Assembly (NCBI GenBank): GCA_964480345.1
Contig: CAYZNW010000003.1
Location: 45,493 to 109,492, forward strand
Direction of reading: 5' to 3'
Source: an uncultured Candidatus Saccharibacteria bacterium
GTDB lineage: Bacteria; Patescibacteriota; Dojkabacteria; SC72
Length of the DNA: 64,000 nt
Positions 3,867 through 48,782 of this stretch are shown here, piece after piece (position 1 is the first letter of the stretch; every line of letters begins with the position of its first letter). The notes beneath the pieces were generated by a model. The model ran no database searches and was not told the DNA's origin. It saw nothing but the letters and a program-made list of their open reading frames with translations. The position numbers and the translations under genes were made by a program.

Positions 3867-6344
3867 ATGTGGATCATCATACTTACGATATTAATAATTT
3901 CGATTCTGTTTGCTCTCTTCATTATGATATGGGGAAAAAGTCATGTTGAGAAAATAGAAGTATATGAAGATTTAAGGAATCCTTCTGTTATGCAAGTCTT
4001 GGTTCCGAGAGAAAACGATAAATCAGCACTTGCTGCTGAACAGATGTTTGCTTCAATCCACGGTATTTTAGAGGGTAACAAGAAGTGTCTCGATGTAGTT
4101 AGTTTAGAGATTGTATCTATAGAGGATAGCGGTATCAAATTCTATATTGTTGCTCCAACCCCCTTAGCAAAATTCATAGAGGGGCAGGTCTACGCTCAGT
4201 ATCCAAATGCAGATATCCGCTATGTTGCTGACTATGTGAAAGAAAATATTGTAAGTACTGAAAGTTTTGTTACTACAGGAGAGATCGAGATGGAGAAGGA
4301 CTCAATATTTCCAATAAAAACTTTTAGAAACTTTGAAGTAGATCCCTTAGCAGCTATTACAGGAGCTATGAGCAAATTAAATATGGGAGAGCAAGTTTGG
4401 CTTCAGATTTTAATTAGACCTGTCTCAAACTATTGGCAAGCTAAATCCAAGAGCTATATCACTGCTATCAAAGAGGGATTAGATCCAAATGGTGTATCTT
4501 TTGGAGCATTAATAGGGAAAATGGTCGGTGGAATTGGGAAGACATTAACAACTTCTCCTGATGATAAGCCACAGAAAGAGGTAGTTAAATTGGTTCCTGG
4601 TCAGGAAGAGGAGTTGAAGGAGATAGAGAACAAGACTTTGAAAGTAGGTTTTGAGTTTAAGATAAGAATAGTTACGAAAGCAGAGGATCAGTTCAGATCA
4701 GAGCAGATCTTGCGAGATGTTGTTGCTAGTTTCAAGCAGTTTACAACAGCTCATCTAAATAACTTTGTACATGCTCAGCCACAAAAATCAGGTAAAGAGA
4801 TATATGACGAATATGTAAGTAGACATATGGAAGAGGATCAAGATATTTTAAATATTGAGGAGCTTGCATCTTTGTATCATTTACCAAATATTTCAGTAGA
4901 GACTCCTAATATTGCTTGGAGTAGGTCTAGGAAGTTAGAACCACCTATGAATATACCAAGAGCTACAGGGGATAATGTAACTATATTTGGAGAGACTGAT
5001 TATCGTGATGTAAAAGTTCAATTCGGTTTGAAAAGGAAGGATAGGCAAAGACACTTCTACTTACTTGGTAAGACAGGTAGTGGTAAATCTACGCTATTTA
5101 AAAATATGTTCATATCTGATGTGTTGTCTGGAGATGGAGCTTGTTTTGTTGATCCTCATGGAGATACGGTAGAGGAGTTGCTTCAATATATCCCTCCAAA
5201 TAGGGTGAAAGATGTAGTGTATTTCAATCCAGCAGATGTAGAGCATCCAATAGGGTTTAATTTGCTTGAGCTTAAAGATCAATCTCAAAGAGATTTGATA
5301 GCTGATGGGGTAGTTGAGGTGTTTAAAAAGCAGTTTGGAGATTCATGGGGTCCTAGGCTTCAATATATTTTAACTAACTCTGTAGCAACTGCATTAGAAG
5401 CTCAAGGGACGACTCTTTTAGCTGTAACTAGGATCCTTCTGGATTCTAACTATCGTAAGTTCATTTTGAAGCAGGTAAATGATCCAATACTGTATAAGTT
5501 CTGGGTGGAGGAGTATGCACAGATGTCACAGAACAATAAGCTGTTGTCTGAGACAGTATCTCCAATACAAAATAAGGTAGGAAGATTTATTTCTTCTGCT
5601 GTAACACGAAATATTGTTGGACAGGTAAAATCAACAATAGATTTGAGAGAGATTATGGATAACAAAAAGATTCTGTTAGTGAATTTAGCTCAGGGTAAAT
5701 TAGGAGAGGAAACAGCTTCATTGTTAGGCGGTATGATCATAACTAGGTTGCAGGCTACAGCTATGGAGAGAGTTGATATTCCAGAAGAACAAAGGGAAGA
5801 CTTCTTCCTTTATGTTGATGAGTTTCAGAACTTTGCAACAGAATCATTTGCGAAAATTCTTTCTGAAGCTAGGAAGTACAAGCTAGATTTAACTATGACT
5901 AACCAATATATTGATCAACTTCCGTTAACAGTGAGACAGGCCATATTTGGTAATGTTGGAACTTTAGGTTCTTTTGTCGTTAGTCAGTCTGATGCTAGTA
6001 TTTTAGAGAAAGAGTTTGCTCCTATGGTTTCTGCAGGGGATCTTGTTTCTTTAGATGCATACTCTATGTATGTTAAATTATGTATTGATGGTATGACATC
6101 TATACCTTTTAGTGCTAAATCTCTTCCTGTTAGATATGAGAAATTTGGATTAAGTGAAGAGATAGTGGCTCACTCTCGTGAACAGTATGGAACTTCTAAG
6201 ATCGAAATAGAGGAGAAGATAGCGAAGTGGAGTAATCAGTCATATAGTGATAAGGGGAACAGAAGTAATATGAATTTAAAGCAGGAGAAGGTGGGAGAGA
6301 AATCGGAACTAAAAAAAGAAGCAAATAACAAACCGCAAGAGTAG
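3867..6344 (+). CDS. membrane-anchored P-loop ATPase of the VirD4/VirB4/FtsK-HerA (T4SS coupling-protein-like, DUF87) superfamily
   Basis: It has an N-terminal TM helix. Its motifs are Walker A 'LLGKTGSGKST', 'DPHGD' and Walker B 'FFLYVDEFQNF'. A ~380-aa domain of unknown function precedes the ATPase. Confidence 0.6.
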   Translation: MWIIILTILIISILFALFIMIWGKSHVEKIEVYEDLRNPSVMQVLVPRENDKSALAAEQMFASIHGILEGNKKCLDVVSLEIVSIEDSGIKFYIVAPTPLAKFIEGQVYAQYPNADIRYVADYVKENIVSTESFVTTGEIEMEKDSIFPIKTFRNFEVDPLAAITGAMSKLNMGEQVWLQILIRPVSNYWQAKSKSYITAIKEGLDPNGVSFGALIGKMVGGIGKTLTTSPDDKPQKEVVKLVPGQEEELKEIENKTLKVGFEFKIRIVTKAEDQFRSEQILRDVVASFKQFTTAHLNNFVHAQPQKSGKEIYDEYVSRHMEEDQDILNIEELASLYHLPNISVETPNIAWSRSRKLEPPMNIPRATGDNVTIFGETDYRDVKVQFGLKRKDRQRHFYLLGKTGSGKSTLFKNMFISDVLSGDGACFVDPHGDTVEELLQYIPPNRVKDVVYFNPADVEHPIGFNLLELKDQSQRDLIADGVVEVFKKQFGDSWGPRLQYILTNSVATALEAQGTTLLAVTRILLDSNYRKFILKQVNDPILYKFWVEEYAQMSQNNKLLSETVSPIQNKVGRFISSAVTRNIVGQVKSTIDLREIMDNKKILLVNLAQGKLGEETASLLGGMIITRLQATAMERVDIPEEQREDFFLYVDEFQNFATESFAKILSEARKYKLDLTMTNQYIDQLPLTVRQAIFGNVGTLGSFVVSQSDASILEKEFAPMVSAGDLVSLDAYSMYVKLCIDGMTSIPFSAKSLPVRYEKFGLSEEIVAHSREQYGTSKIEIEEKIAKWSNQSYSDKGNRSNMNLKQEKVGEKSELKKEANNKPQE

Positions 6345-6417
6345 AATAGGGTAGAGATAAAAGTTGAAGAGAAAGTGCCTTCTGAAAAGGTATAGTTGAA
6401 GAATATCTCCATAGCAA

Positions 6418-6478
6418 GATATAATATGGTATATCTATTATCTTAGATATAGATATACGGTTCGTTAACAACAAAGGG
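6418..6478 (+). promoter_or_regulatory. conserved promoter/leader element (copy A) with a -10 TATAAT at 6420-6425
   Basis: It is ~80% identical over ~60 nt to 7727-7792. It contains the shared core 'ATATCTATTATCTTAG' and 'ACAAAGG'. Confidence 0.5.
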
Positions 6479-6523
6479 TTAGGTGTCTTCAAATAGTTTT
6501 CTGTTTAGTGTTAAGGAGATAAT

Positions 6524-6814
6524 ATGGGGTCTAAAAAAACTGAGAGTAAAAAGCTCGAATATAAATGGTATGAGTTAGGTGTAAAGCTGAATGATTGTAA
6601 GGATGTAAATAAGAAGATATTTACTCTAAAACTTAAGAGTTTACCTTGTGATAAGATAGTTCGAGATTTGTGGTGTATAAAAGGAGTGTCTAGAGTTTTT
6701 CCTTTTCCTGGTAATAGATTTATACGAGTGTTGAAAGAAGATACGTCAGATTGGCTAGATCTTTATCCAAGTATTTATGATGTATTTAAGAAACACTTTC
6801 CTAAACAATATTAA
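6524..6814 (+). CDS. small hypothetical protein (cassette A, 96 aa)
   Basis: There is an AAGGAG RBS 7 nt upstream of the ATG. It is flanked by the conserved leader and conserved tail. Confidence 0.5.
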   Translation: MGSKKTESKKLEYKWYELGVKLNDCKDVNKKIFTLKLKSLPCDKIVRDLWCIKGVSRVFPFPGNRFIRVLKEDTSDWLDLYPSIYDVFKKHFPKQY

Positions 6815-6828
6815 TCCTTTGTTCCGTA

Positions 6829-6874
6829 AGGGACTCTATATATTTTCATATAAAGAGTCCCTCTTTCTTTTCTT
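6829..6874 (+). terminator. rho-independent terminator
   Basis: Stem AGGGACTCT/AGAGTCCCT followed by CTTTCTTTTCTT. Confidence 0.7.
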
Positions 6875-6924
6875 AAAATATCCTTTGTGTTAGAATAATG
6901 TCAGTAATATAATGTTTCTACTAT

Positions 6925-7704
6925 ATGTCAGGACACTCTAAATGGGATACCATCAAACATAAAAAGGCATTAAATGATGCAAAAAAAGGAAAAAGTTTCT
7001 CTAAGGTTTCTGCATTAATATCACATGCTGCAAAACAGGGAGGTGGTGATCCTAATATGAATCCTACCTTGAGATTGCAAATATCAAAAGCAAAAGAGTT
7101 AGGATTTCCTACAGATAAGATAGAGAAAGCTATACAGAAAGGTACTGGAGAGGGTGGTGATGGAGTTATATTTGAAGAGGTAACATATGAGGGCTTTGGT
7201 CCTTTTGGAATACAAATAATTGTAGATACTCTAACAGATAATAAAAACAGAACAGTAGCTGATTTAAGACAGCTATTTGATGAGATAGGGGGGAATATTG
7301 GAGATTCAGGATCTGTTTCTTGGAATTTTGAAACAAAAGGATATATTCAGATATATTCTGGTCATATGGAAAAATCTCCAAAATACGGTGAACCGGATGT
7401 CTTTGTAGAAGAGAACCCTGAAGAGGTTATGCTATCACTTATGGATATAGAGGGTGTGTTAGATATAGAAGAGATAGAGGAGGATAGTAAGAAAGGGTTT
7501 GTAGTATATACGAAGTATGATAGCTTTGGTTTTGTTAGAGATGAGATAGGTAAGTTAGGTTATTTAATTAAAGATGCTCAGTTAATAAAGGAAGCAAATA
7601 TTTTGAAGGAGTTAACTCCTGAGCAGTTTACCAAAGCCCAGGAAGCTATATCAAAGTTAGATGAAAATGATGATGTACAAAATGTTTGGAGTGATATAGA
7701 GTAG
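6925..7704 (+). CDS. yebC: YebC/PmpR family DNA-binding regulatory protein
   Basis: N-terminus 'MSGHSKWDTIKHKKA' is the YebC family signature; about 259 aa. Confidence 0.9.
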   Translation: MSGHSKWDTIKHKKALNDAKKGKSFSKVSALISHAAKQGGGDPNMNPTLRLQISKAKELGFPTDKIEKAIQKGTGEGGDGVIFEEVTYEGFGPFGIQIIVDTLTDNKNRTVADLRQLFDEIGGNIGDSGSVSWNFETKGYIQIYSGHMEKSPKYGEPDVFVEENPEEVMLSLMDIEGVLDIEEIEEDSKKGFVVYTKYDSFGFVRDEIGKLGYLIKDAQLIKEANILKELTPEQFTKAQEAISKLDENDDVQNVWSDIE

Positions 7705-7726
7705 TGATATGAATCCCCTATAGTGT

Positions 7727-7792
7727 GATATAATATAAGTAGATATCTATTATCTTAGTATAAAGATATATCGTTCATTTAAAACAAAGGAT
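7727..7792 (+). promoter_or_regulatory. conserved promoter/leader element (copy B) with an extended -10 TGaTATAAT at 7726-7734
   Basis: Paralogous to 6418-6478. Confidence 0.5.
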
Positions 7793-7829
7793 AAATATTT
7801 CAAAGAGGTTTTTAGGGAAGGAGAGTAGA

Positions 7830-8150
7830 GTGTCTAATAACATATCGTTATGTCATGCTCGTTATAGTCGTGATATAAATGTCGAGGTGTGGGATAAGTG
7901 TGTTTCTTCTACCAAATTGAAAATATATATACGATTCCCAATGGGAAAGAAAGAGGAAAAGGTTCAATTAGAAGGAAAGAAGCTTTTACAAAAGATTTTG
8001 TACAATATAGCTAATCATCCACATATTGATAAGATACACAGGTCTGCTTATCAAGCGACAATCAAAAAAGACAAATGTTTGAATTCGTATTATTTAGCTG
8101 CAGATATTATTAATATTGTTCTCAAAGAAAGCTCTGAAAATCCTAATTAA
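7830..8150 (+). CDS. small hypothetical protein (cassette B, 106 aa, GTG start)
   Basis: There is an AAGGAGAG RBS upstream. The same 11-nt tail 'TCCTTTGTTCC' follows the stop, as in cassette A. Confidence 0.45.
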   Translation: MSNNISLCHARYSRDINVEVWDKCVSSTKLKIYIRFPMGKKEEKVQLEGKKLLQKILYNIANHPHIDKIHRSAYQATIKKDKCLNSYYLAADIINIVLKESSENPN

Positions 8151-8164
8151 TCCTTTGTTCCAAA

Positions 8165-8204
8165 GAAGGAACTTTTTACATACATCCTTGTAAGAAGTTC
8201 CTTC
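8165..8204 (+). terminator. hairpin (terminator-like) after cassette B
   Basis: Stem GAAGGAACT/AGTTCCTTC; weak U-tract. Confidence 0.45.
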
Positions 8205-8266
8205 AATTCAATATACAAATATCCTCTATATACAAAAATTCCTTTCTAGCATACAATAATAATCAT

Positions 8267-8761: not shown

Positions 8762-9360
8762 TGCTGTATAATGTATATATGATTACATATATTACTGGTA
8801 AAATACTCAAATCAAATATAGCAAAAGACTCATATGTAGATCTAATAACTACCTCTGGAGTTGGATATAGAGTAAATATCCCTAATTCATATATATGTCC
8901 TGAATCTGGTTCTGATTACTCCCTATACACATATTTGCATGTAAGAGAGGACTTGCAAATGCTTTTCGGTTTTGAGAAGGAGGATGAAAGAGACTTTTTC
9001 ATTGAATTGATTTCTGTGTCTGGAGTAGGACCTAAAATAGCTCTGGCGATACTCTCTAATTTCTCTCGAAGAGAGTTAGAAGAGTTAATAAATGATGGTG
9101 ATGCAAGAGCGTTAAGTAAAGTCCCAGGATTAGGTCTAAAGAAAGCTCAAAAGATTATACTGGAGCTAAGAGGTAAGATAGATCTTACTATTACAGATGG
9201 AAAAGGTGATTCGGTTATAAAGGAGGTAAAAGAGGCATTGAAATCACTTGGTTTTGTTGGTGATTCATTGAAAGAGAAGATTAAATTAGCTGAAAGTATT
9301 TTAGAAATTAATAGTGAGATTGAGATAGAAGATTTAATAAAGAAGATTTTAAGTGCTTAA
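8761..9360 (+). CDS. ruvA: Holliday junction DNA helicase subunit RuvA (true start possibly a few codons downstream)
   Basis: HhH motifs 'ELISVSGVGPKIALAIL' and 'LSKVPGLGLKKAQKI'; the start overlaps the ruvC stop in TAATG. Confidence 0.85.
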   Translation: MLYNVYMITYITGKILKSNIAKDSYVDLITTSGVGYRVNIPNSYICPESGSDYSLYTYLHVREDLQMLFGFEKEDERDFFIELISVSGVGPKIALAILSNFSRRELEELINDGDARALSKVPGLGLKKAQKIILELRGKIDLTITDGKGDSVIKEVKEALKSLGFVGDSLKEKIKLAESILEINSEIEIEDLIKKILSA

Positions 9361-10397
9361 TGATTTCTTCAAGCAAAGAGAAACAAAAGAATAATAGTTT
9401 GGATAAAAGTAGGAGTGATTCTTCTAAGGATGCTTCTTTGTATGAAGAGAAAATTAGACCATCAAAACTAGATGAGATAATTGGTAGAACTTTAGAAAAG
9501 GAAACTTTGAAGATGATGATTAATTCAGCAAAGAGGAGAAAAGAGGTTGTTGATCATATACTGTTCTACGGTCCTCCAGGTCTTGGTAAGACAACATTTG
9601 CTATGGCTATAGCTAATGAGGTAGGAGCTTCTGTAAAAATTACTTCAGGTCCAGCAATAGAAAGACAGGGTGATTTAGCTGCAATTTTAACAGGGCTTAA
9701 ACAAAATGATATCTTGTTTATCGACGAAATACACAGATTACCAAAGGTAATAGAGGAGGTTTTGTACCCTGCTATGGAAGATAGAGTTCTTGATATTGTG
9801 ATGGGAAAAGGTCCTTCAGCAAAGACGATTAGGCTTAGTTTGGAGCCGTTTACATTGATTGGAGCTACTACACAGATAGGAAAGATTAGCTCTCCTATGA
9901 GAGATAGGTTTGGTTTGATTCAAAGATTAGATTTCTTCTCTCAGGAAGATCTAGTATCTATTCTCTCTAGAGCTTGCCGTTTGTGGGATATTAATATAGA
10001 TAGTGAAGCTTTAGAAATACTCTCTGGCTGTTCAAGAGGTACAGCTAGGGTAGGGCTACGATTACTTAGAAGAAGCCGAGATTACGCTGAGAGTAAGAAT
10101 AAAGGGCAAATAAATACAGATGTAGTTTCAAAAACAATAAAAATGCTTGGAGTAGATAAGTTAGGGTTGGAAAAGATTGATAGGGAGCTGCTACTCTCCT
10201 TACTGAATAACTTCGCTGGTGGTCCTATTGGACTATCAACACTTGCAGCTTCTATCTCTGAAGATGAAGTAACTGTTACTGATGTTAATGAGCCGTATCT
10301 GATGAAATGTGGTTTTCTTAAGAGAACTTCTAGAGGTAGAGTGCTAACACAGAAAGGTTTAAAATATGTAGAATCTTTAGAGTATGAGAAGAAATAG
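9360..10397 (+). CDS. ruvB: Holliday junction helicase RuvB
   Basis: AAA+ Walker A 'GPPGLGKTT'. It has the RuvB-like length and motifs. Its start is TAATG-coupled to the ruvA stop. Confidence 0.9.
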   Translation: MISSSKEKQKNNSLDKSRSDSSKDASLYEEKIRPSKLDEIIGRTLEKETLKMMINSAKRRKEVVDHILFYGPPGLGKTTFAMAIANEVGASVKITSGPAIERQGDLAAILTGLKQNDILFIDEIHRLPKVIEEVLYPAMEDRVLDIVMGKGPSAKTIRLSLEPFTLIGATTQIGKISSPMRDRFGLIQRLDFFSQEDLVSILSRACRLWDINIDSEALEILSGCSRGTARVGLRLLRRSRDYAESKNKGQINTDVVSKTIKMLGVDKLGLEKIDRELLLSLLNNFAGGPIGLSTLAASISEDEVTVTDVNEPYLMKCGFLKRTSRGRVLTQKGLKYVESLEYEKK

Positions 10398-11214
10398 TAG
10401 CGAATCTAGCACAGATAGAGAGAAAAGAGGAAAGCTTCTTCTTCTTGCTGCTTTTATTGCCTTATCTCTTTTCGTAAGTAAAGTAATTCAAAAAGATACT
10501 CAAATTGTAATATCGAGAGTGTATCTTAATGCTTTGATATATTTTGTAATTGTTTTTGTTGGTTTACTTTGGGCATTTAATTTCCAAGTTAAGAGGAAAT
10601 CACTTATCTATCTTTTACAACCTGCCTTATTTGTTTTCTCTCAAGAGTTATTTGTAGAGTTTTTTTTCTTTCAGAAATTTAGCAGAATATATGAAGCTTT
10701 TATACTTCTGTTATTAGTGATAGTTGTATTTTTTGTTAACTATTTCTCCTTCCTTTCAGCAAATGTATTTAATGTAAACCTATACAAAAAGATCCCACTT
10801 GCTCAAGTGGCTAGAACATCTTCTTACATTATTTCTGTCTTAACTATGTACTTCCTTACTTTTAGTTTTTTGTTGAGTGAATTTAATGTTTATTTCTTGC
10901 TTGGATCTATATTGCCGTTTTATATGATTATTACATTAATTCACTATATTAATATTGAAGTAGAGGAGGGAGAGCTGATACGAAAGTCCTTTCTTACAGC
11001 ATTTATATCTTTCATACTTCTAATTGGAGTGTTTCTGTCTGGAAATATTCATGAAATAATTTCTATTGCGCCAGTAGTAGGGTACTATTTCTCGGTTAGT
11101 ATGGTTACTCAAGAGAATATGATTCGTGGTAATTACAAGAATATTGGATTGTATGTAATTACTTTGATACTACTGTTTATTGCTATTTTGTTTGTAAACA
11201 TTTTAGGTAGGTAG
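10384..11214 (+). CDS. polytopic membrane protein, unknown function
   Basis: About 8 hydrophobic helices; overlaps the ruvB stop. Confidence 0.5.
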   Translation: MRRNSSESSTDREKRGKLLLLAAFIALSLFVSKVIQKDTQIVISRVYLNALIYFVIVFVGLLWAFNFQVKRKSLIYLLQPALFVFSQELFVEFFFFQKFSRIYEAFILLLLVIVVFFVNYFSFLSANVFNVNLYKKIPLAQVARTSSYIISVLTMYFLTFSFLLSEFNVYFLLGSILPFYMIITLIHYINIEVEEGELIRKSFLTAFISFILLIGVFLSGNIHEIISIAPVVGYYFSVSMVTQENMIRGNYKNIGLYVITLILLFIAILFVNILGR

Positions 11215-11670
11215 ATCTGCACAGAGTAGGGGGTAGAGTGCTAAAAGCCTGTAGTAATACTGTTTCACAGAAACCCTATAGTAACTTACTTGTGGATAAG
11301 TAAATCTATCTCTCCTTCTAATTTTTCAATATTTTGATGGGTAAGTAGTTGTAATCAAATTCCAGTTTTGATGGATATCTATCAGTGTGGTGTAGGAGGT
11401 TCTACTCTAACGAGAAATATGTTACAATTAGAAAATACAGGGCCGAGTATAATGTCCCTTATATGCGGTTTGTATATAAAAACTTTAGAATAGTGCCTCT
11501 TATGCTTATTTATAATAAAATCAAAAAAGAAGAATTAAATCATTTATATATCTTCTTTTGTTTTCTTTCTTGTACTCTTCTTTTCTCTCATATCTCTCTT
11601 TTGTCAGAAATCTTCAAAATAGCCCCCTACTCTAATTTTCTTAAATTTAATTTTAATGTAATATATAAAT

Positions 11671-13005
11671 ATGAATACATTCCCTAAATTAAATGATCAG
11701 GATGATTTCCTCATCTCCTTACAGAACGATAATTACAGTCTTCAGACTATTGTTAACTATGCGAGAGATTTATGTATATTTGCTGTGTTTTTGCATTTTA
11801 GAAATGTTGATTTTATGAAGATAACTAAAAAGGATATTAGTAGTTTCAAAGGTTACTTAATTGCTGGTCAGCATCTTACAGATTTGGATAAAATTAGAGA
11901 GAAAAGTACTAGAAACATAGACACAGTAAGGCTTAATAATATCGAGGCTCTAGGAGGCTCTAGAAGGCCTTCGAAAAAAGATGCAGGTGTAAGTAGACCT
12001 TTGAGTGATGAAGAAAATGAGTCTGGAAGCGGTAAAAGGTTTGAGAGTGATTTTTTGTCTCAGATCTACAGTAAGGTATACGGTGGTCTTGGTGTCTGGA
12101 GTAATCCTCAGAATAAAGCTGGAAGAAAAAATGAGGGTTTAGATCCAAATAGTATAAATAGAATGTTGTCTGCGTTAAGATCGTTTCTTAGGTTTAGAAT
12201 AAGTTGGGATTTACCAATACCGTTGCCACCTGATGCAGTTGATATGATGAAGACTGAAAAGAGATTGAAAAAGGTTGCTTCTAAGGATGATCTTGTGTCT
12301 TTGATTGAAGCTCCTATGGAGTTTGAGAAGGATGAGAAGATAGCTATTAGGAATAGATGTATGTTAGAGATGCTTTTTGCAACAGGTATGAGGATTTCTG
12401 AGTTGATTGGATTGGATTTAGATCAGATTAATAGCGAGGGTAAGATGTATATTTGGGGTAAGGGACAGAAGGAAAGAAGTGTCTTTATGACGCCAAGAAG
12501 TCTTGATTGGTTAAATAGCTACTTGAGGGTGCGGTTAGAATTTGCATTTACTGATAGGGGGAGTGATGAACAAGATATGTTTTTGAAAGAAAATATTAAT
12601 GAGGATCAATCTAATTTAAATTTAGAGATGTTTGATAAGGGGAATAGGAAGTATATTAGGTTAGTAGAGGAATATAGGGAAAGTGGGTATTTAGAAAAGT
12701 TTGACTCCCCTGCCCTGTTTATTCCTTTTTCTGGAAGTCGTGCCAAGAAATCTGATGCTAGGATATCAACTAATCATTTTCAGGAGAAGATAGCTGAATA
12801 CAGGAGAAAGCTTGGTATTCAGATTCCGACTTCGGCACATAGTTTGAGGCATGGTTTTGCTACTTATTTGGCTGAGGAAGGTGCTAGTCCTGTTGCATTG
12901 CAGGTGTTATTGGGTCATTCTAGTCTTAATACCACGACAAAGTACGTTCATGCTAGTGAGAAGTTTGCTGAAGAGACTGTTAGAAAGAGTCATCCATTAC
13001 AGTAG
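11671..13005 (+). CDS. tyrosine site-specific recombinase, XerC/XerD family, with two low-complexity insertions
   Basis: It has an N-terminal SAM-like core-binding region. The C-terminus 'HSLRHGFATYLAEEGASPVALQVLLGHSSLNTTTKYVH' carries the catalytic RHR-Y motifs. Confidence 0.8.
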   Translation: MNTFPKLNDQDDFLISLQNDNYSLQTIVNYARDLCIFAVFLHFRNVDFMKITKKDISSFKGYLIAGQHLTDLDKIREKSTRNIDTVRLNNIEALGGSRRPSKKDAGVSRPLSDEENESGSGKRFESDFLSQIYSKVYGGLGVWSNPQNKAGRKNEGLDPNSINRMLSALRSFLRFRISWDLPIPLPPDAVDMMKTEKRLKKVASKDDLVSLIEAPMEFEKDEKIAIRNRCMLEMLFATGMRISELIGLDLDQINSEGKMYIWGKGQKERSVFMTPRSLDWLNSYLRVRLEFAFTDRGSDEQDMFLKENINEDQSNLNLEMFDKGNRKYIRLVEEYRESGYLEKFDSPALFIPFSGSRAKKSDARISTNHFQEKIAEYRRKLGIQIPTSAHSLRHGFATYLAEEGASPVALQVLLGHSSLNTTTKYVHASEKFAEETVRKSHPLQ

Positions 13006-13018
13006 TTTTAGTCGAGTT

Positions 13019-13474
13019 TTAATGTCTTAATAAAGCTCGTTCTATGTTGTCGATTTTTGTTGCATTGCTTCTTTCAATATCTAAAGATTGAGTACTATTT
13101 TGTCTCAAAATATTTATTTCTCTTCCCATATCTAAGAGTTGGTTTGTCAGTGCATTGTTTTTTTCTAATGTAGTAAGAAGTATCCCAATTAATTCTCTTT
13201 CAGATGGTTGTTGTATTTCTTGTTTTGGTGAACTTTCTAATATTTCTTTAACTTTCTTTTCTACTTGTTCGTTTATTATTTGTTTAATTTCTTCAGAAAG
13301 TTCTGGTTTTTGTTGTTCTACTTGAGGTTGTTGCGTTGGTTGTTCTGAAGGTGCTACTGGTTGTGCAGTGTTGAATTCAGGTTGGTTTGATGGTTGTTCG
13401 CTTGATTGTATGGGAGTTGTTTCTGATTCTGTTGGGAGATTATTACTTAATTCGAAATTGTTTAGCTCGTCCAT
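13019..13474 (-). CDS. hypothetical Pro/Gln-rich coiled-coil protein
   Basis: ORF only; low complexity. Confidence 0.35.
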   Translation of the reverse strand: MDELNNFELSNNLPTESETTPIQSSEQPSNQPEFNTAQPVAPSEQPTQQPQVEQQKPELSEEIKQIINEQVEKKVKEILESSPKQEIQQPSERELIGILLTTLEKNNALTNQLLDMGREINILRQNSTQSLDIERSNATKIDNIERALLRH

Positions 13475-37288: not shown

Positions 37289-37858
37289 ATGAAGAAGACT
37301 TCATACAAGGCATTCACATTGATTGAAATGCTTATCGTTATGGGTATCATTATCATTCTTATGGTAGTTGGTATAAGTGCGGCTAGGTTCGCTATTAACA
37401 GGGCAAATGATATTGCTCATCAAAATGCTGTTACTCAGATATTCCAAGCTTTAATGGCTTACTACACAGATAATAGACAGTATCCAGTTGCTCAAAATGT
37501 TCAGACATTGATAGGTACACCAGGAAATACCTCAGCTCCATTAAATAAATATATGAACGAGGGTTCATTTAAGGGTGGTACTCCAGCAAGTTATATATAT
37601 ATGGTAGATGATATACATCAGTCAGTTGCGGTTTGTGTTACATTAGGTGGTGTTAATGATGAAGCAGATAGGGGAATCTTCTGTGATGGTAATGCATTTG
37701 GAAGCCCTGAGCTAGAAACCCCAGTACAAGGTCCTTCCTTCACAAAGAAAGGAACTCTTGACTCTGAAGTGGATGAGCAAGTTTACGGGCTATTAAAAGG
37801 TTATACAGATGGTACATCTAACTGGTATGGAGATTCTACTGGTTGGACACAGAACTAA
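37289..37858 (+). CDS. type IV pilin (putative major pilin), prepilin leader MKKTSYKA|FTLIEML
   Basis: Class III signal with Glu+5 and a hydrophobic N-terminal helix; the ORF track starts at an upstream TTG (37268). Confidence 0.8.
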   Translation: MKKTSYKAFTLIEMLIVMGIIIILMVVGISAARFAINRANDIAHQNAVTQIFQALMAYYTDNRQYPVAQNVQTLIGTPGNTSAPLNKYMNEGSFKGGTPASYIYMVDDIHQSVAVCVTLGGVNDEADRGIFCDGNAFGSPELETPVQGPSFTKKGTLDSEVDEQVYGLLKGYTDGTSNWYGDSTGWTQN

Positions 37859-38697: not shown

Positions 38698-41600
38698 CCC
38701 ACCAGAACGGTTGTTTTACTCCACTATTAAACCATTTACCGTGTCTCATAATCTGGTTCATTGTAGGTCCATCTACTGTATAGTCTAACTGTACTTGATT
38801 AATTATTGGAGATACATCTGTATCTGTGCTTGTTAATGTTGCTTTGTACTGGAAGAATCTGTAGCTACTTCCTAGAGTTATTAGTTCTGGAGATACGGTT
38901 GGTAGATACTCTTCACTTGTTATGTTATCTATCCATATATTTCTTCCTCCGTATGTATTGTCTACTCTCATTGTTAGAAGGTTGGCTCTATCTAAATGGG
39001 TGTCTAATGTTCTTCCTTTGATTGGTAAATACTCTTTCTGCCATTTAAATACATTTGCTTTGGTAGTAAAGCCACCTGTTGGGAATGTAGATATACTCTC
39101 CCAATTTCTAACTGTGATAGCTCCTGTGTCTTTGTTTACACTTGTTACTACTCCCTGTGCTATGTACTCTCCACTACTGTTTTGTTCTCTTACTATGATC
39201 TTCTCTCCTGTATATATGTTACTTCCTTTGCTCTTCATTCCTTTTACTGTTCCATCTATTGTAAAGGAGGTATCAGAGGATGATGTTATGAGGTTAGAGC
39301 TATCTAATCCTGCTCCAAACTCTATTTCAATGTTATGTGTTCTTAATCCTACTTCATATGCTTGTCTTATTTCATCTGCACTTCTTGCTATGTTGGAGAT
39401 TCTAACTTCGTCTATTTCTCCATTAAACATTTCGACATAATTAGTAAATCCAATATATGGTAAATTAGAATACCCACTCAATCTTAAATTATATGTTGTG
39501 ACAGGAGAACCGTATGCTGTTGAGTTTGATGCTTTGAGTTCACCATTTAGATATATCTTTAAACCAGAAGAGTCTCCTGTAGCTACTACATGATACCATT
39601 TGTTGAGTTCTACAAGGTTAATTGGAGTTAATAACACATTAGTTCCTCCTCTATCCAGAAATTCTAAAGCACCTGTTGTATTTAATCTGATACGGTACCC
39701 AGAGTTATCACCTTTGTTTATAAAATTAGCAACATCATTAAACTCCTTTGGTTTTATCCACGCCTCTAGGGTGATAGCAGATGGATTTAATGAGGTTGAA
39801 TCAGGTATGACAATATAATCTGAGGTACCATTGAAGTTCCTAGCTCCTCCTATTCGACCGTTATTGGTATATGTAGTTCCTATTGACATTCCGTTGTTAT
39901 TGTATCCTGAACTATCTTTGATATATGCTCCATTCCCATCTATTTCATCTAAGTGCCATAGACCTACTGTATTTGCATCTGGTTGATAGTTTGCATATGC
40001 ACTCTCTCCTACTGTTGTAGATATGTTCTCTCCTACTTTATCACTAGCTATATATACAGGGAGAGAAATTTTTGATGATAGATTCTGTGTTGGTAATAGA
40101 TAATTTGAATATATTGATTTAGGTGAAGAGTTACGATCTACACCTTGAGTGTATTCAGCTAATATTTCGGATGCTGATAAAGCTCTATTGTATATTTTAA
40201 CTTCATCTATTAATCCATTGAATCCTGCTTCTCCAGGTATTTGCTTACTAATATTTAACTCTGTATTAGTTAAATTAACAGTGACCGCATATGTACTAAC
40301 TGCACTTGTAGAGACCTGAGCTCCATTTTTGTAGCAATATATATTAGTACCATCGTAGGAAAAAGTGACATGATTCCATTGAGAAATATCAAGATAAATA
40401 AAACATTGGGCTCCATTCCATATACCCGCAGATATATTACCATCGACATTGTACACTAAATGAATATTACTTGGTTCATACCCTCCAAGGCCAAGAATCC
40501 ATTGTCTCATGGTTGGTGAAGCGTATGGCTTAAGCCATAAATCTACTGTATGTACTTTATCTCCTGTTCCTAATCCACTATTTGGAACTGTTATATAATC
40601 ATTAGTTCCATTAAAACTTCTGCTTTTTCCTACTCGCCCATCTACTATTGTTGTTCCGGTAGCAGTACCTACCCTATCTCCTACCTTATCTGCAACTGTA
40701 GTGCCTGATAGCTCATCCATATCCCAATAGGAGATTAATCCTGTATTCTTTTTTTCAAAGATTGTTTTTAGAGAAGAGTATTCTTCAAAAATCTCTTGAG
40801 TGGAAAGTGTACGATTATATATTTTTGGTTCGTCTAATTGTCCGTTGAAAAACCCCGCTGATGCTATATTTGATCCTAGATAGGTATCTTTATCAGGTCC
40901 TAATGTAAATGTAGATGCAAATTCATTTTCAAGTACACCATCTATATATAATCGAGTCTTAGTTCCATCATTTGTTCCTGTTATTAAATGCCAATTACCA
41001 TCATTTATAGAGGATTTGCTTTCATGGGTAGCTGAGTTGTTACCAGATGTGTTATCAAAATCTATTAACACTTTACCAGTTGAAGAAAATGCGTTTATAT
41101 ATAGGAATAGTCCTCTTGATTGGAATAACATTGAATTTGATGTTGTAGTAGTTTTTACCCAAATACTAGCACTCATAGAAGTGAAAGAAGAAAAATCTAT
41201 TAATGGGACTTGTACATAATCGCTAGTCCCATTGAAGCTTCTACTATTATTTGCCTTACCTTGTGCTATTGTAGTTCCTGTAGCAGTTCCGTTATATGTA
41301 CCTACACTATCTTTAACTACACTTCCACTATTCTCATCCATCTTCCAATATGATACTAATCCATCATTTACAGTAGTCCCTATTCTATTTGATTTATATG
41401 GAAGTTCTTGATTATATAACCTCTCTATTTCATCAGATGTTTTAGCTGCGTTGTATATACGTACATCATCAACAATACCATTAAAACCTTTCCACCTATT
41501 AATGATAATATCGCCACTTGCTTGTCTTATTCCCATGTTACTATATGGTATGCTACTAACTTCTTTCCCATTAACATATAATCTAATAACACTATTTGGA

Positions 41601-44600
41601 CTATCTATTACTCCTACAACATGATACCAAGAATCCTCAGCTATTATCCCCACAGGGCTATTAAGTACAGTACTAGCTACTCCTATGTTATCTACCGATG
41701 TTGATATAAAGCTAATATATTTACCAACTGTATTTATTACTAACATGTATTGTCTATCGGAGCAATTTGTCTCACTACAATCAGCTGCTCCTGTATTTTT
41801 ATTTATCAAATCCATCCAAGTACCACTAAGCGTAGAGGTTTTGAACCATGTTGCTACTGAGAGTTGACTACCACTACCATTAATATCTAAATCTGGAGTA
41901 TTTGGTAATGTTATGTAATCAGTACTTCCATTAAAACTCCTAGCTTTATCATACTTACCATCTACTATTGTTGTTCCTGTTGCACTACCATTACTACTCC
42001 CTACGCTGTCTTTTACTTCGCTACCACTTAATTCATCCATCTTCCAATGAGATACTAAACTATCATCTAATGTACTAGTATTATCTGCAGTCATATTACT
42101 ACTACTTTGTGTAAGAGTAGATCTTTTCTCTATACCTTCTAAATAGTCTGATTGAATTCTATCTGCTGCAAGAGCTTTATTGTATAATTTTACTTCGTCG
42201 ATTATACCTGACAGGGTTCCATTAGGATATGTGTTATCACCCGCTATGAACAAATCTCCACTTCCCTGCCTAATTCCACTACTGCTATATGCTGTAGAAG
42301 CCATTAGTGCTCCATTAAGATAGATACGCATATATCCGTTAGTGCTATCAATTGTACCAACAATATGATACCAAGTGTTTGGATTTATATATCCCCATCC
42401 AACATCTGTTTGTCCTACTCCTATGTTATCTACTGCCGTTGAAGAGAAAACTAAAGTACCACTCTGATTAAGAAACATAGCATATTGCCTATTCACTCCA
42501 CTGTCTGGATTTGTATCAGCCTTATAAAGTAGTGTATGCCAATTCCTTTGTGACATATCAGAAATATTCATCCAGAAACTAACAGTAATTTTACTACCAG
42601 CTCCATTAATATCTAAAGAGCTACTGTTTGGTATTCTTACAACACCAGTATTTCCATTGAAGCTTCTAGCTTTTGCATATTTTCCATCTACTATCCCTGT
42701 TCCAGTAGCTGTACCGTTATTACCTGTTCCTGATATATCACTGACAGTTGTTCCACTCTCTTCATTCATACTCCAATACCCAACTAATCCATCTTCTTTA
42801 TTATTGTATAAGCTACTATTATCAAAAGATCTTAATGTACTCTTTGCTGTATTTTCTTTCCACTCACTCCATGTACCATCATTAGGGTTGTTACTATTTC
42901 CACCTCTAATATGAAATCTAGTATTTCCCGAGTTATAGTTTGAAAGAACTTCTGAGGAAGTAAGAGATCTACTGTAGATTCGAACAGAATCCATCAATCC
43001 TTTATAGTTATTCCCTCCTGCATTTGTAAGCCTTCCCATCTCTAAATTTGTACTGTTAGAAACACTATTTATAGGTCCTGCATTTATCACATCTGCTAGT
43101 CGACCATCAAGATATAATGATAATATTGTAGAGGATTTTGTGGCTACCACATGATGCCATTGATCGTCTACAACAATAAAGTTTGAAGAGCCAATATTTT
43201 TTGTTCCTCCGCTATCGTGAACTTCAAACAATATCTTTCCTTTAGGTTCACCATTAATAGAGATAACACTTAAATTGTAACCAATTCTAGTTGGAGAAAA
43301 AACTTGTTTACTAATTAATGTCGGAAAGGATTCTGCAATAGCATAATCTGCTTTGAACCATACTTCCAAACTAAAGTCTCCTGTACTAAAATCACCTACT
43401 GTACTGTTAGATGCTGTTACATAATCATCAACTCCATCAAACATTAATCCTCCACCTCCCCATCTCCTGTTGTTGTATGTCCAACCACTACCTATAACCT
43501 TATCTTGTCCTGTCGTATCAGAAAAATTAGTTAGAGTTCCATTACAACCACTACCACAACTACCTCCACTACTTGCTACTGTTCCACTACTCTCATTGAA
43601 ATTCCACTGAGCTACTAAGCCAGTAGTGCTATACGGTACCTCCCCATCTCCTGTATTTATACCTGATACAGTAGAAGATACATTTACTTTTGATACACTT
43701 GATCCTGAATCAAATACTGTAGATTCATACTCTCCTGAATATCTCTCTTTACCATACAAATATGTCTTATATATCTCATCTGCACTTCTAGCTATATTGG
43801 ATAAACGTACCTCATCTACTAACCCATTAAAGCCTACTTCGCTCCCTGGTCCTTTACCAATATTTAACTCTGTATTAGCTAAATTGACAGGAACTCCAAC
43901 AGTAGGAGCATTACTAGATACCTGTACTCCATTCTTATAGCAATACATATTAGTTCCGTTGTAGGTGAAAGCTATATGATTCCACTGAGAAATATCAAGG
44001 CGAATAGGACATTGTGAACCACTCCATATACCAGCATAAATATTCCCATCAGTACCATATATGAGATGTATATTACCTTGGTCATATCCTCCCATCACAA
44101 GAAGCCATTGTCTTATTGTTGGTAGAGTATATGGTTTAATCCATAAATCTATTGTATGTGTCTTATCTCCTGTTCCTAATCCACTATTTGGAACTGTTAT
44201 ATAATCATTCTCTCCATCAAATTCGTATCCTTTCCCTATCTTCCCATCTACACCAATTGGTGATATATCTAACAACTTAATTGATGTGAAAAAAGTAACT
44301 TCAGCTACAATAATATTATTAGTTGTAGGAGTGAAATTAACCCAAGTAGCATTGTTATTATATTGCCAACTACTTCCACTATATTTAACAGCAACAAAAT
44401 GATTACTGTTATTTGCTTCTAATCCAGTTATACCTTGAGCTGAAAGAGATGGAGAATACATGATATATCCACTACCTGCTTCAGCATCTGTAACAGCTAT
44501 TCCAGAGTTGATAGTAGGAGTGATTATCCTAATCCCATTCCGATCTATAAAATAGCAATTAGCATCACCATATGTACACTCAATATCTATCTCTCCAGCA

Positions 44601-46742: not shown

Positions 46743-47510
46743 ATGAAAACTGCCAAAAAACACATATACTCTTACAGAGGAAAATATGAAGGATACACCC
46801 TAATAGAAATGCTAGTAGTAATGGCCATATTCGTCATCTTCGTAGCTATGTCTTTCTCTTCTTTCAGTGGATTACAGAATACAATTAAGATGAACGAGTA
46901 CTCATTAACGCTGGAACAAAATATTACCAATGTACAAAGAGCATCTATGTTGTTGGAGAAGAAAGCAGATGACAATTGGCTATACGGATTAGGAATAGAT
47001 CTAACTAAATTAAACCTAGAGGGTCATTACGATACATTTAAATGGTGTTCTCCTTTTACAGATTATGGAGATGTAACAACTAAATCATATATACCTTCTT
47101 TTAATCCAGCTCTAGATCTAGAATCTAGCTTAAACTTTGGCAAGAATGGATATATTCCTATCCCTACAGAAGCATCATATGCAGAAGGAACTTGCAAAAA
47201 TAGTACTTTATCCTCCATTGTTAGTTTAGTGGGATACAAAACAAGTTTAACTCCTCCAAAAGGTAAAATAACCACAAACAGCAATCCATTTAACAATAGA
47301 CCACTAAAATATCTTGTATTTGAGTCTGTTTCTGGAAGAGCATTCTTCTATGATGAAACAGGGAGAGTTGTCAATTACGATGCTAAAGGAAGACCCGTAA
47401 CAGGTCAACCTATCAACTTAGTTATTACCATAGATCCTGATACAAATATACCAATTAAGGAGATAGTTGTTGAGAATCTCTCTGGTCGTATATCAACTAT
47501 AAAGAAATAG
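46743..47510 (+). CDS. minor type IV pilin / pseudopilin
   Basis: Prepilin motif 'G|YTLIEMLVVMAIFVI'. Confidence 0.7.
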   Translation: MKTAKKHIYSYRGKYEGYTLIEMLVVMAIFVIFVAMSFSSFSGLQNTIKMNEYSLTLEQNITNVQRASMLLEKKADDNWLYGLGIDLTKLNLEGHYDTFKWCSPFTDYGDVTTKSYIPSFNPALDLESSLNFGKNGYIPIPTEASYAEGTCKNSTLSSIVSLVGYKTSLTPPKGKITTNSNPFNNRPLKYLVFESVSGRAFFYDETGRVVNYDAKGRPVTGQPINLVITIDPDTNIPIKEIVVENLSGRISTIKK

Positions 47511-48071: not shown

Positions 48072-48782
48072 ATGAAAGAAACAAATATTGAAGAACAAAA
48101 ATATGAAGCATTTAGTTTAGTAGAAATGTTATTAACTATTGTCATCATTGGGTTTGTAATGCTCATATCTGCTGTTACATTAACTACTTTAATTAAAGTC
48201 TCTACAGTCTCTAGTAATAAAACTAGAGTAAGAAATGAATCAGAGTATATATTGGAGTTAATTCGAAAAACAGTAAGAAACTCTAATCCATCAGATGTAT
48301 TTATTTTTAATTCACAAAATGCAAGAGTGTATGCGAGAAACAGTACTACTAATTCGATTACTATAGAAAGTACTGGAAGAGAAGATTTGAAAGCACTTTA
48401 CTCCTCACCTCTTGGAGAAAACGAGGTAGGGAATGAAATTCATTTTAGACCGTACGGCTACAATAGTTGGGTTTGTATAGGATTTTTCAAAGATAGGGAT
48501 TCGGAGAAAGGATATATAGTTAAAACAAATGTGGAAGATTTACTTAATAATCATGATTCATGTTTCCAAAGTGCACCTGGCAAATTCTTGATATCTTTAA
48601 ACTCAGACTATGTATCTGTGGATACTTTCTCTATAGCATATTCTAAAAGTTCAGATAACAATTATCTAATTCGTTTTGATATAGAAGCACAACCAGTTTT
48701 CTGGTATTTTGCTACTGGCGCTCCAGTTAGTAGGAAAGTTTTAAGACAGACAGTTGTGAAGACTGAAGGTTTGATATGGTAG
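48072..48782 (+). CDS. minor type IV pilin / pseudopilin
   Basis: 'A|FSLVEMLLTIVIIG'. Confidence 0.65.
   Translation: MKETNIEEQKYEAFSLVEMLLTIVIIGFVMLISAVTLTTLIKVSTVSSNKTRVRNESEYILELIRKTVRNSNPSDVFIFNSQNARVYARNSTTNSITIESTGREDLKALYSSPLGENEVGNEIHFRPYGYNSWVCIGFFKDRDSEKGYIVKTNVEDLLNNHDSCFQSAPGKFLISLNSDYVSVDTFSIAYSKSSDNNYLIRFDIEAQPVFWYFATGAPVSRKVLRQTVVKTEGLIW

Follow-up and report, generated by a model that had tools for sequence, protein, structure and literature searches.

Self-contained expression cassettes with covarying leader-tail complementarity around unrelated genes in Candidatus Dojkabacteria

Helices that join the two ends of one bacterial mRNA have been described for single genes. In Bacillus subtilis hbs, a helix between the 5' and 3' untranslated regions (UTRs) modulates cleavage by RNase Y, tying mRNA stability to translation (PMC5737220), and in Staphylococcus aureus icaR a 5'/3'-UTR helix controls translation and RNase III cleavage (PMC3868564). 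In the Helicobacter pylori aapA1/IsoA1 system, a long-distance interaction between the ends of a type I toxin mRNA locks the full-length transcript (PMC5416894). Here we analyze a 64-kb stretch of a Candidatus Dojkabacteria contig (hereafter, the window), in which two small open reading frames (ORFs) on either side of the housekeeping gene yebC each belong to a self-contained expression cassette specific to Dojkabacteria, with a covarying 5'/3' clamp and fast-turning-over cargo. Like hbs and icaR, the cassettes carry complementary segments near both ends of one transcription unit, with a predicted helix of about 14 bp joining the 5' UTR to the 3' end of the same mRNA. However, hbs and icaR are single genes, whereas here one pairing module, together with a promoter and a 5' hairpin, surrounds about 30 unrelated cargo genes and covaries per cassette, with overlap between its 3' arm and the stop codon.

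Covarying complementarity between leader and tail

The cassettes appear to be confined to one lineage. When 185,579 species, each represented by one genome, were scanned for the exact pattern, four contigs matched, all from Candidatus Dojkabacteria; a metagenome scan added 11 further loci with true leaders (10 other loci were chance matches), giving 27 non-redundant leaders in total. No true leader was present in 2.9 million viral contigs, where all 58 matches were unrelated sequences. The first-pass annotation of the window had looked to further copies of the leader and tail as a check: none was found in the 64 kb beyond the two by pattern search, repeat finder or an nhmmer profile of the 27 leaders, but about 30 further cassettes were identified elsewhere, either in contigs of Candidatus Dojkabacteria or in metagenome contigs that share the gene order. 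Every one is around yebC/ruvC, with leaders placed after a DUF8128/TraD-like ATPase gene, yebC or ruvC, or in tandem arrays of up to six. Literature searches found no paper describing a Dojkabacteria cassette or UTR element. The element is real and lineage-specific, and our confidence in its anatomy and in the family is high.

Shared anatomy begins with a promoter (-35 TTGAAT-like, spacer motif CCYATAG, then RTGNTATAAT, the latter two conserved in the 27 leaders), followed after about 7 nt by a hairpin, HP1 (AUAUCUA(N0-2)UAU, loop CUUAGU, AU(G/A)UAGAUAU). A linker, UUGUUCAUUAAC, leads to the 5' arm, which consists of AACAAAGG and a variable extension of 3-10 nt and lies about 40 nt into the predicted transcript. 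The UTR is 40-150 nt long, often with a second hairpin, HP2, and a small hairpin directly before the Shine-Dalgarno sequence (SD). The 3' part comprises AAGGAG, one to three ORFs, a stop codon in or next to the 3' arm, 2-5 nt and a terminator hairpin.

Within each cassette, the leader sequence AACAAAGG(G/A)U.. and the tail ..AAUCCUUUGUU are reverse complements of each other, a covarying complementarity that the first-pass annotation missed. The helix is 12-13 bp long in the window cassettes, where it spans the stop codon, and 13-21 bp in other cassettes. An unconstrained duplex search set the leader arm against as much as 2.5 kb of downstream sequence, and for 21 of 24 cassettes its best match fell in the interval from stop codon to terminator. 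Changes in the leader are accompanied by changes in the tail from one cassette to another (GGATTATA/TATAATCC, GGTTTTTT/AAAAAACC, GGGGTT/AACCCC), and the variable extension covaries likewise (in RNA form, GGAUUAUA/UAUAAUCC, GGUUUUUUCUU/AAGAAAAACC, GGGGUU/AACCCC, GGUUAAA/AUUAACC and GGGUUA/UAACCC). Mean duplex energy was -17.3 kcal/mol with the cassette's own tail versus -13.8 kcal/mol with the tails of other cassettes, a difference matched by none of 20,000 permutations. In fixed register, 82% of cells were paired, compared with 43-54% when the arms were slid. Compensatory changes occur at six helix pairs, and across 500 shuffles neither the percentage paired nor the covariation score ever came up to the observed value. 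Stop codon and 3' arm overlap in 14 of 21 cassettes, and in 19 of 21 the distance between them is no more than 11 nt; where they overlap, a terminating ribosome must open the helix.

In the window, the gene order is ATPase (3867-6344), cassette 1 (ORF1), yebC, cassette 2 (ORF2), ruvC, ruvA and ruvB, and both cassettes follow the order of sigma-70-type promoter, 5' hairpin, AACAAAGG.. segment, SD, ORF, tail and 3' hairpin:

6396..6425 (+): promoter of cassette 1; -35 TTGAAG at 6396-6401, 18-nt spacer, -10 TATAAT at 6420-6425; 10/12 matches in the promoter scan
6429..6458 (+): HP1 of cassette 1, at the predicted transcript 5' end; GUAUAUCUAU, a loop with the conserved AUCUUAG, then AUAGAUAUAC
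6470..6482 (+): 5' arm of the long-range helix in cassette 1, AACAAAGGGUUAG; pairs with 6811-6823 in the duplex search
6524..6814 (+): ORF1, 96 amino acids (aa), Nfu_N-like; SD AAGGAG at 6514-6519
6811..6823 (+): 3' arm of cassette 1, UUAAUCCUUUGUU; holds the TAA stop codon at 6812-6814
6829..6874 (+): predicted intrinsic terminator of cassette 1; 34-nt hairpin at 6829-6862 and a U-rich tract; -17.5 kcal/mol, z = -5.4
6925..7704 (+): yebC (TACO1/YebC family), a housekeeping gene outside the element; Pfam matches 4e-41 and 1.9e-27
7715..7734 (+): promoter core of cassette 2; conserved CCCCTATAG, then extended -10 TGATATAAT (7726-7734); aligns with the family promoter
7742..7772 (+): HP1 of cassette 2, an imperfect version with one A-A mismatch
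7783..7796 (+): 5' arm of cassette 2, AACAAAGGAUAAAU; 13 pairs with 8146-8159
7830..8150 (+): ORF2, 106 aa, an ORFan; GTG start, SD AAGGAG at 7818-7823
8146..8159 (+): 3' arm of cassette 2, AUUAAUCCUUUGUU; holds the TAA stop codon at 8148-8150
8165..8204 (+): 3' hairpin of cassette 2; 16 bp, 8-nt loop; -22.8 kcal/mol, z = -7.5; no clear U-tract

Two cassettes with conserved leader and tail flanking yebC had been proposed from the letters of the window, and that description is borne out. The leader blocks (6402-6480 and 7713-7792) are about 80% identical (78% mean column identity over 155 alignment columns) and share an exact 16-mer, ATATCTATTATCTTAG, at 6431-6446 and 7743-7758, its only two exact copies in the whole 64 kb. 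The tails had been credited with an identical 11-nt segment after both stop codons; the identity holds, but its extent is 16 nt (ATTAATCCTTTGTTCC, 6810-6825 and 8146-8161) and includes the TAA stop of each ORF. Both stop codons are embedded in TTAATCCTTTGTT, and a 3' hairpin then follows, as had also been noted. The extended -10 assigned to both copies is present in copy 2 only: cassette 1 has TTGAAG-18-TATAAT without the TG, with CCATAG at 6409-6414 in its spacer as the family-conserved spacer motif. The promoter core of cassette 2 begins 11 nt past the yebC stop codon.

Whole-transcript folds are consistent with this anatomy. HP1, the long-range helix and the 3' hairpin are all kept in the minimum-free-energy and centroid folds of both whole predicted window transcripts. 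In the fold of cassette 1, the helix 6470-6482 x 6811-6823 has 12 pairs including one G-U, and an extra G-U by inspection (G6482-U6811) would bring it to 13; HP1 of this cassette has a local fold of -11.9 kcal/mol. The 5' arm lies upstream of AAGGAG, its end 31 nt away in cassette 1 and 21 nt away in cassette 2; in sister cassettes this distance reaches about 150 nt. No Rfam family reached the gathering score in the whole 64-kb window, tRNA and tmRNA included, and E-value mode returned sub-threshold miRNA-like hairpin matches only.

Additional features surround the 3' ends of the window cassettes. In cassette 2, the terminator scan reported an alternative small hairpin (8157-8172) followed by UUUUU (8157-8177), in which the tail GUUCC pairs with GGAAC of the 5' arm of the 3' hairpin, and cassette 1 has a comparable GUUCC...GGGAC; this alternative structure may compete with the clamp or with the large hairpin. 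Past each 3' hairpin (6863-6924 and 8205-8266) there is a fresh promoter-like stretch, ...ATATCCTTTGTGTTAGAATAATGTCAGTAATATAAT before yebC and ...TTTCTAGCATACAATAATAATCAT before ruvC, restarting the downstream housekeeping gene. The stretch before yebC holds ATCCTTTGTGT, a near-copy of the cassette tail motif.

Local hairpins HP1 and HP2

The predicted 5' hairpin provides the strand information that the long-range helix does not. HP1 folds in nearly all 27 leaders, with cassette 2 of the window as a weak, imperfect version. MAFFT/RNAalifold on the leaders under-called it, with the 3' arm misaligned, and per-sequence folds and a fixed-register comparison were used. In the per-sequence folds, G-U accounts for 47 of the 337 predicted pairs. 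One stem position is U-A in 20 leaders, U-G in five and C-G in two, while the outer stem contains 10 G-U pairs, two compensated C-G pairs and no uncompensated C-A. Because G-U occurs without C-A, this pattern is not what a strand-symmetric DNA palindrome would give; the wobbles and the U-A/U-G/C-G series point to a structure in the sense-strand RNA. A shared regulatory RNA element, one of the possibilities raised in the first-pass annotation, is supported by this predicted structure and by the covariation. The conserved HP1 loop has no complementary site in the window that could serve as a partner in trans.

HP2, the second UTR hairpin, is about 60 nt long and lies between the 5' arm and the SD of sister cassettes; the window cassettes are short-leader forms that lack it. 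Examples occur at 4385-4440 in locus L004, 940-995 in L006 and 4362-4420 in L007, and also in L005, L016, L020 and L022. HP2 comes in two sequence types, CAUAUGCUG...CAGCAUAUG and UUUGUGCUC...GAGCACAAA, with one structure, and compensatory changes are found in 10 of its 22 predicted pairs.

Cargo and its turnover at the yebC-ruvC junctions

BLASTP shows no relationship between the proteins that the two window cassettes carry (E = 12), in agreement with the first-pass annotation, and their predicted folds differ. ORF1 is putatively Nfu_N-like by sequence and model: it passes the Pfam cutoff for Nfu_N (PF08712) at the borderline (27.5 bits, cutoff 27), has weak sequence matches in the PDB to SeR13, NFU1 and SAV1430, and its AlphaFold2 model (predicted local distance difference test score 71) has the NFU1 N-domain as top fold match, with SAV1430 also in the list. 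Over 54 aa it shares 37% identity (E = 1.4e-4) with a 103-aa protein at L004 4432-4743, which lies upstream of yebC as ORF1 does and has a 70%-identical counterpart there in L006 (2435-2752). ORF2 found only itself in an exhaustive search of 1.84 billion representatives, and its predicted structure had no fold neighbor. In a word-indexed database each ORF likewise found itself only, and the DNA of neither matched any other collected locus.

Elsewhere in Dojkabacteria the same flanks surround some 30 additional ORFs or small operons, most of them unrelated to one another, and certain close relatives have empty sites; this supports the cassette-like arrangement of conserved flanks and divergent cargo that had been suggested for the window. 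The 29 cargo proteins collected show few mutual similarities. Pfam places Nfu_N in four and dUTPase in one; there are also membrane proteins, some of them multi-pass, tandem paralogs and many proteins without a family. Cargo outside the window is about 92-374 aa long, in units of one to three genes. In PHROGs, only two proteins matched: a membrane protein (E = 3.6e-4) and the dUTPase, which matched dCTP deaminase, a related family, as well. No cargo protein had a PADLOC match to a defense family. The earlier proposal of toxin/immunity pairs or secreted peptides is not supported by this cargo of Nfu_N-like, ORFan, dUTPase and membrane proteins. The dUTPase, in a cassette at L022 713-1434, is bona fide (Pfam 3.8e-26, PHROG 3e-49), and the chassis therefore also hosts an enzyme of known function.

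Leaders are conserved well above the third codon positions of yebC. Between genomes they are 80-88% identical, whereas in the same pairs yebC is 73-83% identical overall and 47-60% at third codon positions; ATPase, yebC and ruvC together range from 69 to 83% in these pairs. Cassette number and content differ between close relatives. The closest relative of the window is a Dojkabacteria metagenome-assembled genome (L007) with about 80-83% DNA identity in the housekeeping genes, which assigns the window itself to Dojkabacteria (WS6). L007 lacks a cassette upstream of yebC and carries four different ones downstream of it. In L087, with a YebC 80% identical, there is no cassette at all, and the yebC stop is separated by 4 nt from the ruvC ATG.

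Traces of past rearrangement are visible at some junctions. A relic that covers the final ~57 nt of yebC and has 86% identity to the window yebC lies directly upstream of an internal cassette promoter in L007 (4190-4246), and a relic ruvC 3' segment (80%) holds the same position in L022 (1455-1499). Relic housekeeping ends in front of some leaders imply that duplication or movement of cassettes took along a piece of the adjoining gene; the relics point to homologous or unequal recombination behind duplication and shuffling. Gain, loss, duplication and shuffling of cassettes at the ATPase-yebC-ruvC-ruvA junctions probably proceed through recombination between conserved flanks. A more distant member of Dojkabacteria (L091) has a different insert at the yebC-ruvC and ruvC-ruvA junctions (8859-11572 and 12130-13234), with five and two tandem ORFs of ~165-187 aa, several starting MAPF..., separated by 20-80-nt spacers and without leader or tail. 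The yebC-ruvC-ruvA junctions apparently act as a general hot spot of accessory genes.

Several other features of the window deserve mention. Directly upstream of the hot spot, 3867-6344 (+) encodes an 825-aa DUF8128 protein whose ATPase domain is of the TrwB/TraD/VirD4-like coupling-protein type; this protein is preceded by a LytR_C protein and conserved in all relatives. Downstream, 11671-13005 (+) encodes a Xer-like tyrosine recombinase that, at 444 aa, carries a long insertion relative to the typical Xer of ~300 aa; it lies 1.3 kb past ruvB and ~3.5 kb from cassette 2, and its synteny holds in every Dojkabacteria locus examined, whether cassettes are present or not. Farther away, 39300-45400 contains large families of diverged direct repeats of 60-300 nt (families D1-D6 and D10), and a 48-nt block is repeated at 37300-37347, 46781-46828 and 48098-48145. 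By eye, one frame of this block resembles the hydrophobic N-terminus of a type IV prepilin (...LIEMLVVM...), and the window may contain several pilin-like genes.

A possible role for the clamp and comparison with known systems

The best explanation for these observations, and in our judgment a likely one, is a cargo-independent mRNA chassis with a 5'/3'-UTR clamp, most likely controlling mRNA stability or translation. Each cassette would be transcribed from its own sigma-70-type promoter into a predicted transcript that begins with HP1. The segment AACAAAGG and 3-10 variable nucleotides would then pair with the last nucleotides of the message, the 3' partner containing the stop codon or lying within about 10 nt of it, just 5' of the 3' hairpin. 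Given this pairing, HP1 and the 3' hairpin, the mRNA is predicted to be a panhandle with neither end single-stranded. Such a clamp could protect the message from 5'-end-dependent and 3' exonucleolytic decay, and a terminating ribosome would melt the helix, coupling stability or re-initiation to translation. Our confidence in stabilization or translation coupling as the function is moderate to low. It is more doubtful, though conceivable, that the promoter, 5' hairpin, stop-spanning clamp and terminator form a Dojkabacteria "plug-in" chassis into which new or foreign coding sequences are slotted, the clamp acting as a bacterial closed loop that ties mRNA survival or re-initiation to completed translation. 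If so, the chassis would be a way to express and test ORFan genes in a reduced Candidate Phyla Radiation genome.

Several observations weigh against an RNA clamp. Nearly all pairs of the long-range helix are Watson-Crick (13 of 352 are G-U), and the antisense strand folds it equally well (sense-versus-antisense energy test, p = 0.43), so the helix alone cannot tell RNA pairing from a DNA inverted repeat. Shared ancestry of the cassettes inflates the covariation statistics, and the whole-transcript fold of cassette 1 is overall no better than shuffles (z = -1.1). Transcription start sites, transcript ends and leader-tail pairing are predictions throughout. Cassette 2 may work less well, because its 3' hairpin lacks a U-tract and its HP1 is imperfect.

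Alternatively, the same RNA architecture could be repressive, with the duplex serving as the target of a double-strand-specific RNase or keeping the mRNA inert until processing, as in icaR and type I toxin mRNAs, so that accessory genes stay silent or tightly limited. The helix and its covariation apply equally to this reading, the 5'-3' interactions of icaR (PMC3868564) and AapA1 (PMC5416894) repress, and the tail UCCUUU resembles an anti-SD while the leader arm AAAGGA resembles an SD. However, the 5' arm lies well upstream of the real SD AAGGAG and, unlike in icaR, does not cover it; in predicted folds this SD is unpaired, not bound to the 3' UTR. Duplexes of 13-21 bp are also short for RNase III, near-consensus promoters and SDs suit high expression, and the cargo proteins are not toxin-like. 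We consider repression unlikely, although it is the chief rival of our preferred reading. A family of ordinary paralogs, in which one ancestral gene diverged beyond recognition, gene conversion kept promoters and terminators alike and the complementarity is incidental, is very improbable. Nfu_N does recur in 4 of 29 cargo proteins, several others have a similar C-terminal pattern by eye, and some cargo genes are tandem paralogs, but a cargo that includes a dUTPase (3.8e-26), multi-pass membrane proteins and one- to three-gene units is too heterogeneous for simple diverged duplicates, and the predicted folds of ORF1 and ORF2 differ. Moreover, the leader-tail complementarity covaries, and leader conservation across species is well above that of synonymous sites, which gene conversion within a genome cannot explain.

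The cassettes could also be mobile at the DNA level, with AACAAAGGATT...AATCCTTTGTT as terminal repeats or recombination sites, or with the 11-6-11 palindrome of HP1 as a dif/pdif-like site of the nearby Xer-like recombinase; insertion would then proceed by site-specific recombination, as for integron cassettes, pdif modules or Xer-exploiting integrative elements. This would accommodate the inverted repeats around the cargo and their strand-symmetric pairing, the differing content and occasional empty sites of close relatives, the imperfect palindrome with 6-nt center in HP1 DNA and the tyrosine recombinase 3.5 kb downstream. But conservation reaches outside the repeats (promoter and HP1 5', terminator 3') and also lies inside them, where a UTR with HP2 is common to cassettes of different cargo, so the variable part is the coding sequence and not the repeat-bounded segment. 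The repeats vary with compensatory changes and are not fixed as protein recognition would have it, departures from HP1 pairing are G-U and never C-A, filled and empty sites differ by no target duplication, no extra site follows the last cassette, and cargo is always forward, never inverted. The recombinase scores as XerD/XerC (180 bits) over integron integrase (71 bits) and is syntenic in cassette-free genomes too, while the relic yebC and ruvC ends point to homologous or unequal recombination. Both the DNA-level role of the repeats and insertion by site-specific recombination are therefore improbable, and the mRNA chassis with a 5'/3' clamp remains our preferred reading.

Beyond hbs and icaR, the cassettes resemble type I toxin loci in being small, self-contained and multi-copy, with interacting mRNA ends; in hok/sok, the type I toxin mRNA folds back in a 5'-3' interaction. 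Type I toxins, however, are hydrophobic and under 60 aa, whereas cassette cargo is mostly soluble, heterogeneous and 92-374 aa long, and the SD is not sequestered. In the window, the 96-aa Nfu_N-like ORF1 and the 106-aa soluble ORFan ORF2 both exceed the limit of ~60 aa. Minus-strand promoter matches in the window are weak and no more numerous than in shuffles, in a promoter scan only; a conserved antisense element across loci was not searched for.

In their autonomous unit structure, the cassettes are also like phage morons, which are promoter-ORF-terminator units inserted between operon genes, with accessory and variable cargo; we know of no common conserved UTR chassis among morons. The cassettes sit between housekeeping genes (ATPase, yebC, ruvC, ruvA) and not in a prophage, and no viral contig had the leader. 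Integron cassettes and Acinetobacter pdif modules form arrays of unrelated ORFs that are bounded by a repeated structured element and vary between relatives, but each Dojkabacteria cassette has its own promoter, and the boundaries of similarity are those of the coding sequence and not of a recombination site. There is no integron integrase next to the array, the nearest tyrosine recombinase scoring 71 bits against the integron integrase cutoff of 265 (XerD, 180), and we reject the integron reading on this Xer-like recombinase and the separate promoters. Instead of promoterless cassettes with attC (GTTRRRY / RYYYAAC), there are -35 / TGnTATAAT promoters, a tail GTTCC or GTTCG, and terminator-like 3' hairpins whose sequence is not conserved. 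A miniature inverted-repeat or insertion sequence-like element fits no better: the inverted repeats are internal to the conserved unit, filled versus empty junctions show no duplication and the loci contain no transposase.

The "upstream homology box"/erp-type families of Borrelia likewise place a conserved promoter and leader before divergent coding sequences in multiple copies, an arrangement thought to allow co-regulation and recombination. There, conservation reflects a DNA operator bound by proteins, and we are aware of no 5'-3' RNA pairing or conserved 3' tail in these families.

The cassettes offer a natural comparative data set on mRNA end-to-end pairing in the control of stability and translation, and HP1, the clamp and HP2 are new, structurally supported RNA motifs outside Rfam. 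They also mark a hot spot at which accessory and ORFan genes turn over in a Candidate Phyla Radiation lineage for which we know of no cultured members, flag ORFan cargo as genes in whose expression the cell invests, and provide, in a compact chassis, a candidate expression tool. Precedents exist for 5'/3'-UTR interactions and for moron-like or cassette arrays, but we know of none for the two combined in a reusable chassis: Dojkabacteria appear to carry a reusable covarying module around dozens of unrelated genes.

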